A stretch of 30,518 nt of DNA, from positions 1 through 30,518 of IMG/VR virus record IMGVR_UViG_3300045988_043100. One strand, 5' to 3'. This DNA is from a virus. The position numbers and the translations under genes are program-made. Shown piece after piece: positions 1 through 30,518 of the stretch. Below the pieces are notes generated by a model. The model did no database searches. It saw only the letters and a program-made list of their open reading frames with translations, and was not told the DNA's origin. Position 1 is the first letter of the stretch, and every line of letters begins with the position of its first letter.

Positions 1-70
1 AGGTCGGCTCCACTCAGATCGGCTCCACTCAGGTCGGCTCCAATCAGGTCGGCTCCAATCAGGTTGGCTC
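1..70. repeat. 15-bp tandem repeat (aggtcggctccactc and variants, about 4.5 copies). The same array is present at 30440-30518. It is the coding sequence of pentapeptide repeats A(D/N)L(S/I)G on the minus strand.
   Basis: Periodicity read directly from the sequence. Minus-strand translation gives ANLIG-ADLIG-ADLSG-ADLSG. Confidence 0.9.
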
Positions 71-143
71 TCTCACCGCCTAGCTCCATATTCGTCCATT
101 TTTTGTGCTTTTCCAAGATCTCCTTCAGATTTTTTACACTCAT
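1..143 (-). CDS. 5' part of a pentapeptide-repeat protein gene that continues across the window junction into 30092-30518. Probable start is the ATG at 143 (MSVKNLKEILEKHKKWTNMELGGERANLIG...). An alternative ATG lies at 89.
   Basis: The minus-strand frame is open from the stop at 162-164 down to position 1, which is why it is under 60 aa inside the linear window and absent from the ORF track. A GAGGAGG sits 6 nt upstream of the ATG at 143. The frame is continuous with ORF 30092..30370 once the 54-nt terminal overlap is taken into account. Confidence 0.55.
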   Translation of the reverse strand, partial: MSVKNLKEILEKHKKWTNMELGGERANLIGADLIGADLSGADLSGAD

Positions 144-519
144 AACCATCCTCCTCAATCTCTACTTCCACCCGGGGCTTTTCCTTGTCGTACAGCACCC
201 GGCTGCCGTCGTGGGAAACTACAATGCCGCTGTGATCGTCCTCCAGGATGCCCCAATGCACCAGGGTATCGTCGATAGCTTCCAACAGGTTTGTCAGATC
301 GACCCTGCGCCTGGTCGCCATGTAAAACACCGCCTTGACGGTCACAGGCCGCTGTATCGGCTCTTTCGGCTTCGGCCTGAGAAAATACCCGGCAGAAGTC
401 TCGAAGTTCTTATAAGCCTGTGACGGGGCCACAAACGGCTTTCCGGTTTTCCGATTCACCAGGATGCGCTGGCTATTCTTCTTGCTCACTGGCGCAATGG
501 GAATTGTGTATTTGAGCAC
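73..519 (-). CDS. rusA: RusA-family Holliday junction resolvase (crossover junction endodeoxyribonuclease). GTG start at 519. The C-terminal tail overlaps the start of the pentapeptide gene.
   Basis: RusA-like motifs in the translation: SKKNSQRI, VDLTNLLEAIDDTLVHWGILEDD, VVSHDGSRV. GGAGGG lies 7 nt upstream of the GTG. The position after the replication genes is typical for phages. Confidence 0.8.
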   Translation of the reverse strand: MLKYTIPIAPVSKKNSQRILVNRKTGKPFVAPSQAYKNFETSAGYFLRPKPKEPIQRPVTVKAVFYMATRRRVDLTNLLEAIDDTLVHWGILEDDHSGIVVSHDGSRVLYDKEKPRVEVEIEEDGYECKKSEGDLGKAQKMDEYGARR

Positions 520-4488: not shown

Positions 4489-4694
4489 TCCTGCACGCCC
4501 CCTTCCATCCAGCGGACAAAAGCCCGGCGGGGGATTCTGGTGCGGGTGCCCTGCACGCTCACGGGGAAGCCCAGGGCATCGGGGTTTTCCCGGGCCTGGA
4601 TGCGGATACTCTGCGGGTCGCAGCCGATCACTTGGGCCACGACAGCCGGAGAAATGAACTCCTTATCCATGGCCTTGATATCATTAAGCGTCAT
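4485..4694 (-). CDS. Excisionase/MerR-type (HTH_17-like) DNA-binding protein.
   Basis: Motif AVVAQVIGCDPQSIRIQARENPDALGFPV...RIPRRAFVRWMEG matches Xis/AlpA-like HTH domains. Confidence 0.55.
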   Translation of the reverse strand: MTLNDIKAMDKEFISPAVVAQVIGCDPQSIRIQARENPDALGFPVSVQGTRTRIPRRAFVRWMEGGVQE

Positions 4695-4782
4695 GCTTTT
4701 CCCTCCATTCCTTCAAAATTCCTTCATATTCCGGCCACCGGTTGGGCCAGATGGGCCTACGAATAGGCCATGTGCTGAACAC

Positions 4783-5007
4783 CTATCCGCAGATGATCAG
4801 AAAGGCAATGAAGCCAAACATCAGAGCCGAAAAGGCAAACACGGCCAGGCCAGCCATGAACATCTGGATCATCTCCATCTTCTGACGGGCGGTCAGGCGA
4901 TTGCTGTCGCAGCGGGAGACGCCAGCGGCGTCCATGACCTTGTCCACATCCCTTGCGCTCTGGCGGATGTCGTGGACGACCTGGTTAAATTTGCGATTAT
5001 CTTTCAT
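4783..5007 (-). CDS. Small protein with a C-terminal transmembrane helix.
   Basis: AAGGAGGA lies 7 nt upstream. C-terminal hydrophobic stretch AGLAVFAFSALMFGFIAFLII. Confidence 0.5.
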   Translation of the reverse strand: MKDNRKFNQVVHDIRQSARDVDKVMDAAGVSRCDSNRLTARQKMEMIQMFMAGLAVFAFSALMFGFIAFLIICG

Positions 5008-5093
5008 AAAAAATCCTCCTTGCCTTGTGGCCGGCAGGAGGATGTGGTATAATTCTCCCGCGGGCCTGTTGGATGCTTCAATAGGTTCCGCTG

Positions 5094-5139
5094 CCCTTGC
5101 TGGTGGTGGTGCACCGGCAGGGGCTTTTATTTTGTTTCC
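5094..5139 (+). terminator. GC-rich 12-bp stem hairpin (perfect on the plus strand with two G-U pairs) followed by a T-rich tract. It lies just downstream (minus sense) of the cro-like gene stop. It is a plus-strand or bidirectional terminator candidate.
   Basis: Arms cccttgctggtg and caccggcagggg with loop gtggtg, then cttttattttgtttcc. Confidence 0.4.
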
Positions 5140-5318
5140 TTCAGCAGATTGTCGATGGTAACGCCGAAGAAGTCGGCGACCAGCTTGATGTTGTTGACAC
5201 TGGGGGAGACCCTATCCCATTTGTAGATGGTTCCGAAACCAAGGCCGACTTCTTTTTCAAGAGCGGTAATATTGGTTTTTCTCTCCCGGCAAAGAGCCTT
5301 GATGTTATCGAGAATCAA
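5127..5318 (-). CDS. Cro-like HTH XRE-family transcriptional regulator.
   Basis: The HTH_3 signature ALCRERKTNITALEKEVGLGFGTIYKWD and the C-terminal FFGVTIDNLL are typical. It is divergent from the CI-like repressor. Confidence 0.75.
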   Translation of the reverse strand: MILDNIKALCRERKTNITALEKEVGLGFGTIYKWDRVSPSVNNIKLVADFFGVTIDNLLKETK

Positions 5319-5344
5319 AGTATCACCTCTTCTGTTAAGTAAAG

Positions 5345-5485
5345 CTATTTCAGCAATTCGGCCAAAGCCTGCGCAACCCCCGGGAGAACCGATACTTCTT
5401 CCTCGGGTGCGTTAGGCTTTGTAGCCCTCTCCACAAAAGAGACAAGAGCTTCTTCCAGCCTGGCCCGAACAGTTTTTTCATCCAT
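5345..5485 (-). CDS. Unannotated 46-aa ORF (MDEKTVRARLEEALVSFVERATKPNAPEEEVSVLPGVAQALAELLK). It is the first gene of the leftward early operon.
   Basis: Not in the ORF track because it is under 60 aa. TAAGGAGGAA lies 6 nt upstream of the ATG at 5485. Immediately downstream of the leftward consensus promoter. Confidence 0.4.
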   Translation of the reverse strand: MDEKTVRARLEEALVSFVERATKPNAPEEEVSVLPGVAQALAELLK

Positions 5486-5603
5486 TCCTATTCCTCCTTA
5501 TTTCTTGACGGGAATCGGTATATGCTAATATCGTGTTGGAGGCACAACTGCATATGTTCCGATAAGGCCCGCATTTTATGGGGGCTTGGTTTTTCGTCGC
5601 CCC

Positions 5604-5641
5604 ACACCCTTATTATATTTGAGTATATTCAAGTTGTCAAC
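5604..5641 (-). promoter_or_regulatory. Leftward early promoter with perfect consensus -35 TTGACA (rc of 5635-5640) and -10 TATAAT (rc of 5612-5617), 17-nt spacer. The spacer contains a 12-bp quasi-palindrome TGAGTATATTCA (operator candidate).
   Basis: The minus strand reads gTTGACAacttgaatatactcaaaTATAATaag. The intergenic region 5486-5684 separates the divergent cro-like and CI-like genes. A rightward TTGACG ... TAATAT element is also present around 5504-5531. Confidence 0.6.
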
Positions 5642-5684
5642 AGAGTGTTGGGACATTTTCAAATTTTGTTAAGGGAGGGATTTT

Positions 5685-5999
5685 ATGCCCATTGTTTCTG
5701 TTTTGGAAAGGCTTTGCAAAGAAAACGGAACTACAATCACTGCGTTAGAAAGAAAATGCGGCTTCAGCCTTGGTTCAATAAGAAAATGGGATGCCCATGC
5801 ACCAACAATTCCGAAATTGGAAGCGGTTGCGAAAGAACTTGGTACAACGGTTTCCTATATAATTGGTGAAAAAAATCCCGCCTCCGGAAATGGAGACGGG
5901 ATCAGCGAGCATGATGTCAGGCTTCTTGAGTGGTTCCACTCTCTGCCCGAAGAAAAGCGGCGAGCAATCCTAGAGATTGCAGGCGGGCCAAAAGAATAG
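5685..5999 (+). CDS. CI-like HTH XRE-family repressor.
   Basis: HTH_3 motif LERLCKENGTTITALERKCGFSLGSIRKWD. AAGGGAGGG RBS present. Divergent from cro and located upstream of the integrase. Confidence 0.75.
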   Translation: MPIVSVLERLCKENGTTITALERKCGFSLGSIRKWDAHAPTIPKLEAVAKELGTTVSYIIGEKNPASGNGDGISEHDVRLLEWFHSLPEEKRRAILEIAGGPKE

Positions 6000-7250: not shown

Positions 7251-8351
7251 ATGAAGTGCCGAAAGTGCCATGCAGAAATCCCGGACGAAAGCAAATACTG
7301 TCTCCGCTGCGGGGCCAAGCAGGAGATCAAGCGCAGCACCAGGACCCGGGGAAACGGCCAGGGAAGCGCCATCAAACGGGGAAGCACATGGACGGCCATC
7401 TGGACGGAATCAATGTATGTTGACGAAGAGGGAGGGTTTCACCAGAAGCGCCGGTGGAAAGGCGGATTCAAAACCAAGCGGGATGCCCTGGCTTACGCTG
7501 CCGGCCCGAAGGTGGAAGAAAAGCAGTATCCCTCTTTGAAAAGCTACTGGAAGAGCTGGGAGGATTCAGACTATCAGGACCTTTCGAAGTCCAAGCAAAC
7601 GGCCTTCCGCATTGCCTGGGCAAAGATGGAGGCCATTGCAGACAAAGACATGATGAGCCTGACCATTCAAAACCTACAAAACCTTGTGGATGAAAAAGCC
7701 CCCACATATTACCCGGCCAAGGACATGAAGACCCTTCTATCCCATTTATACAAGCGTGCTGTGGCCGAAGGAAACGCCCGAACTAACCTGGCGGAGTTTA
7801 TCCGGCTGCCGCCGCTGGAAGAAAAGGAAATGCAGCCGTTTGCAGAAGTGGAGCTTAAAAAGCTGTGGGATGCTTACGGCGCCGGGGATGAGTTTGTGGG
7901 GTACATCCTCCTGATGGTGTACTCAGGCATGATGCCCGGTGAGCTGCTTCAGATGCGGGGCAATATGGTGGATTGGGAAAAGGGGGAAATCGTTGGGTGC
8001 GGCCTGAAAACGAAAAAGCGCAAAGTCACCCCCATTGTTTTCCCGGACATGATCGCACCGGTGATCCGGGACACGATCGACCGGAGGGGAAACGAAGAAG
8101 AGTTGATCGTGCCAATCAGACGGGATAAATTCTATGACGAATACCACGCCGCTTTGCAGCGGGCCGGAGTGCGTGATTTGCCGCCATACTCCTGCCGCCA
8201 TACAACGGCAACGGCGCTGGCCCTGGACAACATAGCGCCCAGCGTGATCCAGGAAGTCATGCGCCACACCAAGTTCTCGACCACACAACGGTACATCCAC
8301 CCGGACAGCTCGTCCGCCAGGGATGCGGTCAACAGCCTAAAAAAGGCTTGA
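7251..8351 (+). CDS. int: Tyrosine site-specific integrase with an N-terminal zinc ribbon (CRKC...CLRCG) and an AP2-like arm-type DNA-binding domain. The start has been trimmed to the ATG at 7251 (MKCRKCH...).
   Basis: The C-terminal catalytic region SCRHTTATALALDN...VMRHTKFSTTQRYIH supplies the R...HxxR...Y signature of phage integrases. The N-terminal GNGQGSAIKRGSTWTAIW...FHQKRRWKGGFKTKRDA resembles AP2-type arm-binding domains. AAAGGAGG RBS present. Confidence 0.85.
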   Translation: MKCRKCHAEIPDESKYCLRCGAKQEIKRSTRTRGNGQGSAIKRGSTWTAIWTESMYVDEEGGFHQKRRWKGGFKTKRDALAYAAGPKVEEKQYPSLKSYWKSWEDSDYQDLSKSKQTAFRIAWAKMEAIADKDMMSLTIQNLQNLVDEKAPTYYPAKDMKTLLSHLYKRAVAEGNARTNLAEFIRLPPLEEKEMQPFAEVELKKLWDAYGAGDEFVGYILLMVYSGMMPGELLQMRGNMVDWEKGEIVGCGLKTKKRKVTPIVFPDMIAPVIRDTIDRRGNEEELIVPIRRDKFYDEYHAALQRAGVRDLPPYSCRHTTATALALDNIAPSVIQEVMRHTKFSTTQRYIHPDSSSARDAVNSLKKA

Positions 8352-8586
8352 AAAAATACGAAAGAAATTTAGTTATAGTTAGCATTACAGTTAGCAAATG
8401 CGCCGGAAGCGTTGATTTTACAGGGCCTGTCCACCCCTGATAGATGTGGTAAACATTAGTACCTATCAGCGCAGCAAGCAGCACGCCCACCAGAATTTTA
8501 AGAAAAAAAGCGTGCCGTTTGAGGTCGGCATACATTTCAGACGCCAAAGGTTCGGTATTTTTCGGCTGTTCGTTTTTTCCACACAT
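8329..8586 (-). CDS. Possible small membrane protein (MCGKNEQ...FLKILVGVLLAALIGTNVY...). It converges on and overlaps the integrase 3' end.
   Basis: AAGGA lies 9 nt upstream of the ATG at 8586 and there is one hydrophobic helix. It overlaps the candidate attP, so it is uncertain. Confidence 0.3.
   Translation of the reverse strand: MCGKNEQPKNTEPLASEMYADLKRHAFFLKILVGVLLAALIGTNVYHIYQGWTGPVKSTLPAHLLTVMLTITKFLSYFFKPFLGC
8352..8470. other. Candidate attP region: three direct AGTTA(GCA) repeats (8371, 8377, 8389) and an imperfect inverted repeat ctgatagATGT..ACAT..ctatcag (8437-8469), immediately downstream of int.
   Basis: The repeats are seen in the sequence. Placement 3' of int is the usual attP location in temperate phages of Firmicutes. 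Confidence 0.35.
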
Positions 8587-8606
8587 AAAATCACATCCTT
8601 TGGGCA

Positions 8607-8957
8607 TCATTTTACCATGATGTCTGGCGTTGCGCAATCGATGATCTTGACATGGTTGTCGATGCGTTTCATCAACCGTTTGACGCTGCCGTTTCCGTCC
8701 CGCTTCTCATAAGCATCATACATGGTGGTGAGGTTGTCCATTTCGTCCACAGTGGCCCGTCCAGAGTTGAGCACATTCATTCCGGCTTCCCAGATCAGGC
8801 CGTGTAAAATGGCAACGATGGCATCGTCGATTTCGTCTTTCCACTGCTTTTCCTTTTTTTCCTTGGCTTTCATGGATTTCACCCAGGCAGCAATCAGTCC
8901 GACGAAAAAGACGATTTGCACCCACCAAATGCGGAGAAACTCCGCCGTTTCCCGCAT
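8607..8957 (-). CDS. Membrane-anchored hypothetical protein (N-terminal transmembrane helix plus soluble domain), located between the lysis cassette and int/att.
   Basis: N-terminal IWWVQIVFFVGLIAAWV. This position is often occupied by lysogenic-conversion or exclusion genes. Confidence 0.5.
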   Translation of the reverse strand: MRETAEFLRIWWVQIVFFVGLIAAWVKSMKAKEKKEKQWKDEIDDAIVAILHGLIWEAGMNVLNSGRATVDEMDNLTTMYDAYEKRDGNGSVKRLMKRIDNHVKIIDCATPDIMVK

Positions 8958-28773: not shown

Positions 28774-29889
28774 TTACATATTTCCAATTTCCGTTTGGCC
28801 AAATCCAATCTCTTCCGGCCTCCACCCAACGCCGATATAATCCAAAACACGGCCCCAGCCGTATCTTTGCCCCTTTTCATCCACGCAGCATCTATGCATC
28901 CAGAAATCCCACTCTTTGGGATTGCTCTGGTAAAGCCTGTCGAACCGATGGGGACGCTTTTCCAGATGGATGCCAAATCCGCACATCGAGCACCCCGTCC
29001 GCTGGGCCTTTGTGGTGCGTAGCGTTCCATCTGCATCCCGAACGATCTCACCGTAAATCTCCGGCACGGGCACATTCAAATCCAGAGCCAGCTGCAAAAG
29101 GTCCTGACGGCTGAAAATTGCAAAAGGAGCCGAGCGAATTGTGCTTTTCCCAAAATAATTGCATCCGTGCATCATCAGCGACTTTTGTCGGCGCCCCCCC
29201 TCAGATGCCATCAGACCCAAATAGGGAACGCTGTTGTGCTTTTTGGCCCAATCTTCACAAGGCTTCTCCTTGAGATAGTAGCAGCATTTCGACGAAACCT
29301 TGAAGGGAGCGATCTTGTAATTCACCCCTTCGCTCTCATTTTCATACCCGGCGAAAAGCTCCAGCCATTTTTGAGCCAGCTTCATCCGTGTATCTTTGCG
29401 ATATCCGCCATATTCTCCCGTCTCTCCGGTGATGATGGCGTGCCGTACCGTAGCATTCTCCCGTGTCGGTCTTTGCAGCAACTCAATCTTTCCCGCCGTT
29501 TCTTTGCTCAAAACAGGAAACCCAAACTCTTGCAGAATGCTGGCCTTGTTCCATGTGTTTCCGTTTTTGTCTTTCAGCGGCGGGATCGACTCGATCCCCA
29601 GTGCCTTATGTACCTTCTGGATGCTCTTATCTTCCAGATGGGAGCAGGAAATCCCCGGCACACCCATGTGCAGTCTTTCATTGATGAAGAGGAAAAGAGT
29701 AATACTGTCCAGGCCTCCCACCGAAACATGGCAATTCAGGCCCCTTCTTTCGCACTCTCCGAAAAATTCGGTGGCCCTTTTGGCTGCATAGGCAACTTTT
29801 TGCTCATAGGGCAAGCCCTGGTTGATCCGGAACCTCGCCACCTTTTCTTCTGTGTTCTCTTCTTTCATTCTTTCCAGAATGCTCTTCAT
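28774..29889 (-). CDS. Phosphoadenosine-phosphosulfate-reductase-family (PP-loop ATP pyrophosphatase-like) protein. The start has been trimmed to the ATG at 29889.
   Basis: PP-loop-like motif CHVSVGGLDSITLFLF. The size and Cys clusters are typical of phage PAPS-reductase-like proteins found near terminase genes. ATGA overlap with the upstream gene. Confidence 0.6.
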   Translation of the reverse strand: MKSILERMKEENTEEKVARFRINQGLPYEQKVAYAAKRATEFFGECERRGLNCHVSVGGLDSITLFLFINERLHMGVPGISCSHLEDKSIQKVHKALGIESIPPLKDKNGNTWNKASILQEFGFPVLSKETAGKIELLQRPTRENATVRHAIITGETGEYGGYRKDTRMKLAQKWLELFAGYENESEGVNYKIAPFKVSSKCCYYLKEKPCEDWAKKHNSVPYLGLMASEGGRRQKSLMMHGCNYFGKSTIRSAPFAIFSRQDLLQLALDLNVPVPEIYGEIVRDADGTLRTTKAQRTGCSMCGFGIHLEKRPHRFDRLYQSNPKEWDFWMHRCCVDEKGQRYGWGRVLDYIGVGWRPEEIGFGQTEIGNM

Positions 29890-30095
29890 GGCTTTCTTCC
29901 TTTCTTCGCTCTCCGCATCCACATTTTTCTGGCCGCAATGTGCAGCACGGCATCTGCTTCGTTTTGACTTTTCTTTTGCTTGCGCAAGCGTTCTCGTTCT
30001 GCGTTTGCAGCTTCCACTTCATCCAGATAACGCTGACAGCTTCCGTGGCAACCGATGTGCCTTTCGGTGCAGTCCTTGCAGCATGTGATGCTCAT
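29886..30095 (-). CDS. Small Cys-rich protein (CCKDC...CHGSC).
   Basis: 69 aa, coupled to its neighbours. Confidence 0.45.
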   Translation of the reverse strand: MSITCCKDCTERHIGCHGSCQRYLDEVEAANAERERLRKQKKSQNEADAVLHIAARKMWMRRAKKGRKP

Positions 30096-30518
30096 CTATG
30101 CTCCACCGCCGCTTGCCGGTTAATGTAAAAATGGATTCCCGGCGCACATTCATTCCACCTGTTTTGGTCAAAATTGGGGACGCTTACCATCTCACCGGTG
30201 CGGTACACAAAGGATGCATCATAAATGCTCCTTGCTTCCTCAACCTCCCCTTCTTCCGTCTCGATCCCCAGCACAAGGGCCTTGTCACACCGGCATTTGC
30301 TCCCAGCTGCAGAGGTTCGCTGGGCATCCTCCAGAATTTTCAATTTAATGATCGCTGGCATGCCATCCACGCCTTTCCCTTTCTTCCAGCCGATAAATTC
30401 TCCTTGTTCTGGGCACGCAAGGGGTATTTGTATATTTTTGGCTCCACTCAGGTCGGCTCCACTCAGGTCGGCTCCACTCAGATCGGCTCCACTCAGGTCG
30501 GCTCCAATCAGGTCGGCT
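30092..30518 (-). CDS. 3' part of the junction-spanning pentapeptide-repeat protein. It comprises the repeats A(D/N)L(S/I)G (about 6 units across the junction), then AKNIQIP, then a roughly 115-aa C-terminal domain with conserved Cys (KCRCD, ECAPGIHFY).
   Basis: The minus-strand frame is open from 30518 to the stop at 30092 and is in phase with the ORF at 1-143 once the 54-nt overlap is removed. The repeats match the A(D/N)LXX consensus. Confidence 0.6.
   Translation of the reverse strand, partial: ADLIGADLSGADLSGADLSGADLSGAKNIQIPLACPEQGEFIGWKKGKGVDGMPAIIKLKILEDAQRTSAAGSKCRCDKALVLGIETEEGEVEEARSIYDASFVYRTGEMVSVPNFDQNRWNECAPGIHFYINRQAAVEHR
30421..30518. repeat. 15-bp tandem repeat array identical to 1-70. 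The last 54 nt equal the first 54 nt of the window.
   Basis: Direct comparison of the two ends of the sequence. Confidence 0.9.

Follow-up and report, generated by a model that had tools for sequence, protein, structure and literature searches.

A pentapeptide-repeat/DUF5758 gene interrupted by the ends of a circular viral assembly

Analysis of the window, that is the whole stretch of 30,518 nucleotides (nt) comprising positions 1–30,518 of the viral IMG/VR record IMGVR_UViG_3300045988_043100, confirmed that one real phage gene, coding for 171 amino acids (aa) when the overlap between the two ends is collapsed, was cut where the circular assembly had been opened. The protein is almost certainly an ordinary member of an abundant viral family in which pentapeptide repeats precede the domain DUF5758 (Pfam PF19062), and the conserved part of that family is DUF5758 and not the solenoid formed by the repeats. 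A preliminary description of this DNA had noticed the divided gene and suspected a Qnr/MfpA-type DNA mimic: the observation was confirmed, and the interpretation was supported in part. The protein is tentatively proposed, at less than even likelihood, to be an early-expressed host-interaction adaptor serving either takeover or counter-defence, as opposed to a rod-shaped mimic of DNA, all of the mechanistic steps in that proposal being inferred. Identity and mechanism taken together, this is the best overall explanation and is held with slightly better than even confidence.

The gene across the junction

Tandem Repeats Finder located a tandem repeat of 15 base pairs (bp) at both ends of the window, with 4.7 copies at 1–70 (92% matches) and 5.3 copies at 30440–30518 (95% matches), and a degenerate pattern for the unit matched the window 11 times (nine matches in the two arrays plus two isolated sites with one mismatch each) compared with the 0.69 matches expected by chance. 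Translation of the units from the minus strand gives ANLIG, ADLIG and ADLSG, thereby bearing out the prior claim that the repeats at both ends specify A(D/N)L(S/I)G pentapeptides. Bases 1–54 proved to be identical to bases 30465–30518, an exact overlap lying wholly inside the repeat array. This terminal identity is most readily understood as an assembly overlap, the type of redundancy carried by circular contigs, to be counted once on circularising; its removal leaves a circle of 30,464 bp.

Simple end-to-end joining of the window produced a 189-aa open reading frame (ORF) with a break in the repeat register (ADLADL). Collapse of the 54-bp overlap produced a clean minus-strand ORF of 171 aa (173 aa from an upstream ATG) containing six full units and open throughout the joined frame, a result in agreement with the ORF of roughly 173 aa and six to seven repeats that the preliminary description had expected from circularisation. 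The sole other join to preserve the register, an overlap of 9 bp, gave nine units and 186 aa. The layout of the 171-aa product is MSVKNLKEILEKHKKWTNMELGGER-(ANLIG ADLIG ADLSG ADLSG ADLSG ADLSG)-AKNIQ…VEHR. Its gene is divided into a 5′ part at 1–143 (minus strand; ATG 143..141, reading MSVKNL..., then the cap helix at aa 3–17, units 1–4 and the start of unit 5) and a 3′ part at 30092–30518 (minus strand; units 2–6, DUF5758 and the stop codon TGA at 30094..30092). The corresponding portions of the array, again on the minus strand, occupy 1–68 at the start of the window (unit 1 at 68..54, unit 2 at 53..39, unit 3 at 38..24 and unit 4 at 23..9) and 30443–30518 at its end (units 2–6, with unit 6 at 30457..30443).

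A Shine-Dalgarno-like GAGGAGG, read from the sequence at 150–156 on the minus strand, lies 6 nt upstream of ATG 143. The alternative ATG at 149..147 leaves no spacer to this motif, and the internal Met19 (ATG 89..87), the start chosen by gene callers in relatives, is not accompanied by a Shine-Dalgarno-like site. Gene callers either missed the junction gene altogether or, in relatives, began it 18 codons too late. The appropriate correction to the annotation is to close the circle minus the 54-bp overlap, call the gene from ATG 143, and label the product as a pentapeptide repeat / DUF5758 protein.

In the related contigs L001 (36.9 kb) and L002 (36.7 kb), which are 93–96% identical to the window over the gene region and its flanks, the gene is undivided and lies within the contig, flanked by RusA on one side and on the other by the same 69-aa ORF as in the window, the order in both being a G39P-like loader, RusA, the pentapeptide-DUF5758 gene, the 69-aa ORF, and onward to terminase. 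These contigs bear directly on the alternative that the array, or indeed the entire joined ORF, is an artefact, whether because the ends belong to different molecules or paralogues or because the array was mis-assembled. Such an artefact would be in keeping with the position of the contig break, given that the contig opened exactly within the array, which is the only long tandem repeat and makes up 0.3% of the circular sequence of 30,464 bp; with the existence of two register-preserving joins, giving six or nine units; with the truncation of several relatives at the array; and with the outcome of an exact look-up, in which none of the five possible joined proteins was matched in a collection of 15 billion proteins. 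It is nevertheless considered very improbable, as the 54-bp overlap is exact even in its internal GAT/GAC and ATT/AGT variants, the relatives retain the gene with the same neighbours on both sides, and the window contains no second copy of DUF5758. What the location of the break does suggest is that the array had entangled the assembly graph, and the earlier caution that the repeat number might be unreliable was consequently well placed. Because none of the five joined proteins is in the collection, the look-up also left the number of units unsettled: the copy number in the window may be six, nine or another value, and it is this number, not the gene itself, that is in doubt.

A separate feature of L002 concerns the poly-A tract immediately after the start codon, which contains one extra base (A8 vs A6, at approximately 5950–5976, equivalent to window positions 143–120) so that the ATG and the conserved N-terminal helix are no longer in the same frame. 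The extra base may be an error of sequencing or a genuine frameshift, or may reflect phase variation at a slippage-prone tract.

Domains, predicted structure and family

Searches with Pfam models confirmed the pentapeptide-repeat identity proposed in the preliminary description, PF00805 (Pentapeptide) matching aa 25–56 with E = 1.2e-13 and a score of 50.8 bits against a cut-off of 20.2. The same description had delimited a C-terminal domain of 115 aa that it could not place. Its length was correct, the region from KNIQ to VEHR being exactly 115 aa; the domain itself is a catalogued one, because PF19062 matched aa 63–167 over practically its full profile (positions 3–105 of 105; E = 1.3e-33; 115.6 bits against 26.9). 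DUF5758 therefore occupies 30107–30421 on the minus strand, with conserved residues at C105, C154, H159, K75, R97, S99, K104, R106, Y135 and G157-I-H-F. PHROGs 7713 and 9562 span the two halves of the protein, and both carry no assigned function. A link with ADP-ribosyltransferases was considered and dropped, the only hint being a PHROG match with an E-value of 0.38, the domain being too small, and no match of fold being found.

The full-length model generated by AlphaFold2 (AF2), with a predicted local distance difference test (pLDDT) value of 89.1, comprises a helix at residues 3–17, then isolated beta-bridges, and then DUF5758. The predicted helix accords with the typical pentapeptide-repeat N-terminus recognised beforehand, and its motif, L..IL.KH..WL....GERA.L, is kept in distant homologues. 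The beta-bridges occur at a 5-residue spacing (27, 32, 37, 47, 52 and 57; pLDDT 73–90) that fits a quadrilateral beta-helix, in a segment of fewer than two coils: the six in-register units, ANLIG, ADLIG and four of ADLSG, make up only some 30–32 residues, or ~1.6 coils. The C-domain modelled alone (pLDDT 91.5) is all-beta with a short C-terminal helix. On the basis of these models, the protein would begin with a cap helix, continue as a right-handed beta-solenoid, very short at six A(D/N)LXX units, and end in an all-beta DUF5758 of ~105 aa. Foldseek searches with the model returned no pentapeptide-repeat structure, and comparison of the family profile with the sequences of the PDB gave matches confined to the repeat region; DUF5758 is without a solved structural relative. 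Net charges were calculated as −4 for the repeat segment, −2 for the C-domain and −5 for the whole protein.

A search with the full protein yielded 5,926 homologues, the best 120 of which all combine PF00805 with PF19062, and a search with the C-domain alone yielded 3,502 representatives of 50%-identity clusters, in which the domain is nearly always C-terminal. The N-terminal partners among these representatives are canonical or degenerate pentapeptide repeats, BspA-like leucine-rich repeats (LRR), a hexapeptide-like repeat, or nothing at all; in the family as a whole, repeat counts extend from 0 to ~30 units, or LRR, MORN, HEAT or RING partners are present instead. Tblastn against GenBank phages matched 309 records, including 152 Mycobacterium phage records (Kostyavirus/cluster E, e.g. 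Goku gp56), the mycobacteriophage matches listed being annotated either as "pentapeptide repeat protein" or as hypothetical, with further matches from Rhizobium, Ralstonia, Thiohalocapsa and human-faecal phages. DUF5758 is 50–60% identical among phages of Actinobacteria, phages of Proteobacteria and gut phages. At the nucleotide level, 10.5 kb of window sequence had no megablast match among GenBank phages. When the predicted C-domain was compared with predicted viral structures using Foldseek, many giant-virus proteins were recovered (E down to 2.7e-9, TM ~0.8, 20–33% identity) from Mimivirus, Klosneuvirus, Hyperionvirus, Harvfovirus and others, with DUF5758 fused to MORN, RING, HEAT or pentapeptide repeats, or alone; the C-domain model also matched several paralogues in Acidovorax phage ACP17. 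DUF5758 is thus one of the more frequent domains of uncharacterised function in phages and giant viruses.

Two individual cases may be recorded alongside these totals. A 65-kb phage contig (L006) contains two DUF5758 genes, at 2540–2980 and 5001–5828, one copy being a 146-aa protein with the cap helix and zero repeats, and the other a 275-aa protein with a long pentapeptide array. In a 169-aa metagenomic protein (P0212), a PAPS-reductase-like N-terminus is joined directly to DUF5758; this may be an artefact of gene fusion or frameshift, or may hint at a functional link to the PAPS-reductase-like gene located near the junction gene in the window. DUF7666, a neighbour of the DUF5758 gene in another contig (L008), was examined as a possible relative of the domain and found to be unrelated.

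Alignment of 149 C-domains (the query plus 148 representatives at 50% identity) identified columns conserved at 97–100%, all of them present in the query: K75, R97, S99, C105, R106, Y135, C154, G157, I158, H159 and F160. Cys65 and Cys107 are common as well, but the mycobacteriophage and Rhizobium proteins lack both, and the general signature of DUF5758 is for that reason Cys/Cys/His plus basic residues.

Array variability and possible function

In contrast to the constancy of the C-terminal module, the array differs markedly between close relatives. There are six units in the window, five in L001 and ten in L002, whose C-domains are 97–98% identical at the DNA level; the counts are 5–14 in ten close relatives and 3–23 within a single 90% cluster. 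Throughout the units of the close relatives, position 1 is Ala and position 3 is Leu (97/97 in each case), the variable positions being 2 (D/N/Y), 4 (R/W/Y/S/C/I/L, with Arg in 45% of units) and 5 (G/E/R). Positions 2, 4 and 5 are those that face outwards in the pentapeptide fold (PMC10886550). At the DNA level, the 21 units of the window, L001 and L002 use GCC for Ala and CTG for Leu, with two GCT exceptions. A diversity-generating retroelement was ruled out as the source of the variation on the grounds that the window contains no template copy: the unit pattern is restricted to the array and two isolated single-unit sites attributable to chance, and Tandem Repeats Finder detected no other copy. 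No reverse transcriptase was present in the precomputed Pfam gene tables of the 12-kb L001 and L002 loci, the window itself not having been scanned for one.

The proposal of a host-interaction adaptor derives from the combination of a constant C-terminal module with an interchangeable variable arm, the early or accessory position of the gene, the presence of paralogues in some genomes, and a distribution spanning phages and giant viruses. In such an adaptor the part that stays constant and does the work would be DUF5758. The invariant Cys105, Cys154 and His159, together with the invariant basic cluster, suggest from their conservation a site for metal, ligand or nucleic-acid binding, or for catalysis, which might act on a target shared by widely differing hosts, while the repeat solenoid would act as an arm, variable in length and surface, that sets partner specificity or evades recognition. 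A stronger version of the same idea, regarded as rather unlikely, is that the array is a deliberately fast-evolving interaction surface, in which the gain and loss of units over a range of 3–23 and substitutions restricted to outward-facing positions would serve to retune or disguise the arm beside a constant DUF5758 head, whose Cys/Cys/His site would act on a host factor. Were this true, pentapeptide-DUF5758 proteins would constitute a widespread class of viral effectors of host takeover or counter-defence, common to phages and giant viruses; in any event, the near-isogenic contigs, in which the C-domain is identical and 3–23 surface-variable repeats precede it, offer a handy natural series with which to test both modules. 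The scientific interest is modest and resides in the hypervariable array and in DUF5758 itself, and if the family does prove to be a counter-defence or takeover effector, it would be a useful though not revolutionary addition.

A number of considerations weigh against the adaptor. The cluster E mycobacteriophages have a stable, degenerate array of ~24 units, from which it follows that hypervariability is tied to near-perfect DNA repeats and is not family-wide; the variation could accordingly reflect neutral slippage of such repeats, as opposed to selection. A four-Cys zinc site was rejected as a general feature, since Cys65 and Cys107 do not occur in the mycobacteriophage and Rhizobium proteins. 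No one gene accompanies DUF5758 throughout the family, and because the neighbourhood is not conserved across the family, guilt by association is a weak guide. Literature searches for DUF5758 or PF19062 found no paper or experiment, and those for pentapeptide-repeat proteins of phages turned up nothing beyond reviews and generic mentions of HHpred.

The main rival to the adaptor is a nucleic-acid-binding role, in which the protein would be a DNA- or RNA-binding accessory factor of the replication/recombination module, with DUF5758 as a small basic beta-barrel working with RusA or with the 69-aa Cys-rich protein. The intimate packing of the genes is consistent with this role, the junction gene overlapping RusA by 71 nt and sharing an ATGA with the 69-aa ORF in an arrangement kept in L001 and L002, as are the location of DUF5758 genes near SSB, primase-helicase and RadC genes in other phages and the invariant Lys and Arg residues of the domain. 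However, the C-domain has a net charge of −2, RusA and the 69-aa partner are not neighbours of the gene in distant members of the family, and the fusions to LRR, MORN, HEAT and RING in other viruses suggest roles directed at proteins; the accessory factor was judged unlikely.

The DNA mimic of the preliminary description fared less well. As originally conceived, it would be a compact protein of the Qnr/MfpA type, whose pentapeptide solenoid imitates B-form DNA and thereby blocks host gyrase or restriction enzymes. The repeat consensus is indeed that of Qnr and MfpA, the profile matches structures of QnrB1, MfpA and McbG-like proteins through the repeat region, the repeat segment is mildly acidic (net −4), and an early-region position, with Lar-type restriction-alleviation genes near in two distant phages, would suit such a function. 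The specific models nonetheless scored far below their cut-offs of 240–480 bits: the NCBIfam scores were 18.6 vs 460 bits for QnrB, 13.3 vs 240 for Qnr and 13.6 vs 360 for MfpA. The solved structures of MfpA and QnrB1 have ~8–10 coils per monomer and form a rod-like dimer of ~100 Å, whereas the ~30 repeat residues of the present protein provide only ~1.6. Dimerisation of Qnr and MfpA is through C-terminal helices (PMC10886550). In the position of that dimerisation helix, the repeats here run straight into the all-beta DUF5758. Moreover, close relatives carry Arg, Trp or Tyr at the outward-facing position 4 (Arg at the frequency given above), which would hardly make for a DNA-like surface, and members with zero repeats, like the non-pentapeptide fusions, still keep DUF5758. 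A Qnr-like mimic is thereby reduced to a small probability, which leaves room for a counter-defence role. As for anti-restriction or gyrase targeting, what speaks for it are hints from the gene neighbourhoods of a few distant phages.

Genomic context and known relatives

The gene for the RusA resolvase lies immediately upstream at 73–519 on the minus strand (PF05866 covering aa 8–122 of 148), confirming the neighbour named in the preliminary description and placing the junction gene at the end of an early replication/recombination module. Within the window the upstream block consists of an HTH_36 initiator-like protein, a G39P-like helicase loader and RusA, and the pentapeptide gene closes it. 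The overlap with the 5′ end of the pentapeptide gene involves the last 71 nt of rusA (73–143), which encode a non-domain tail in another frame; this tail runs ~23 residues beyond the RusA domain, and the overlap is unusually long for genes. Immediately downstream, at 29886–30095 on the minus strand, is the 69-aa Cys-rich ORF, the ATG of which overlaps the stop codon of the pentapeptide gene (ATGA) and which has the same position in L001 and L002. Its sequence, MSITCCKDCTERHIGCHGSCQRY… followed by a basic tail, had no match among Pfam or PHROG families; the product appears to be a small protein of the zinc-ribbon type. Beyond it the order is a PAPS-reductase-like gene (phrog_424; 28777–29922, two genes downstream of the pentapeptide gene), small ORFs, a DUF4417/nuclease-like gene and TerL, the latter being ~4 kb downstream of the pentapeptide gene. 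Defence-system models from PADLOC matched 0 families.

Elsewhere in the family the surroundings are different. Counting from the repressor, the gene comes third in the early operon of Mycobacterium phage Goku, and its Rhizobium phage counterpart comes fourth after the repressor genes; in large distant phages it is found amid small accessory genes, and in two contigs (L007 and L008) it follows SSB and primase-helicase genes. A Lar_restr_allev gene adjoins the DUF5758 gene in contig L003, which also has a Tad8-family gene (4564–4902 and 8351–8644 for the Lar-type and Tad8-family genes), and lies three genes away from it in contig L004 (4044–4391). With Lar-type and Tad8-family genes so close by, the DUF5758 genes of those distant phages are situated within accessory or anti-defence clusters.

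An unrelated repeat was encountered in the HTH_36 initiator-like gene (minus-strand ORF 1056–1946), where a 7-bp/14-bp tandem repeat of ACAGAAT/ACAGAAG at 1401–1478 (~11 copies) sits in a linker reading NTEYRRQNTEDRIQKAETESRIQKTED. By analogy with lambda O, this may be an iteron-type replication origin inside the initiator gene.

Among known systems, those closest to the junction protein include proteins of cultured phages. Goku gp56 (Kostyavirus, cluster E) and EVB67_031 of Rhizobium phage RHph_TM3_3_14B have the same two domains, with DUF5758 at the C-terminus, the same KCR...ECAPGIHFF motifs and a place in an early operon, and are 41–48% identical to the window protein over aa 26–170. They differ from it in the N-terminus, in the two cysteines already mentioned (Cys65 and Cys107), and in the array, the mycobacteriophage version having ~24 degenerate repeats of stable length and the Rhizobium version ~20 ANL/ADL-YG/RS units. 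The DUF5758 proteins of giant viruses share the predicted fold, its attachment to repeat scaffolds and the occurrence of several paralogues per genome, but their partners are mostly MORN, RING or HEAT, or the domain stands alone, and their hosts are eukaryotic. With Qnr, MfpA, McbG and AlbG the likeness is limited to the A(D/N)LXX repeat and the quadrilateral beta-helix that it builds, the profile matches being in the repeat region only; those proteins are solenoids of ~180–220 aa that dimerise through C-terminal helices and present a DNA-like pattern of charge (PMC10886550). The best matches of solved structures to the repeat region of the profile were the cyanobacterial proteins Np275/Np276 and the designed 'beta1' solenoids (PDB 2J8K, 4YC5 and 5DRA; E 1e-46 to 1e-58), which are non-viral and consist of the solenoid only, without DUF5758.
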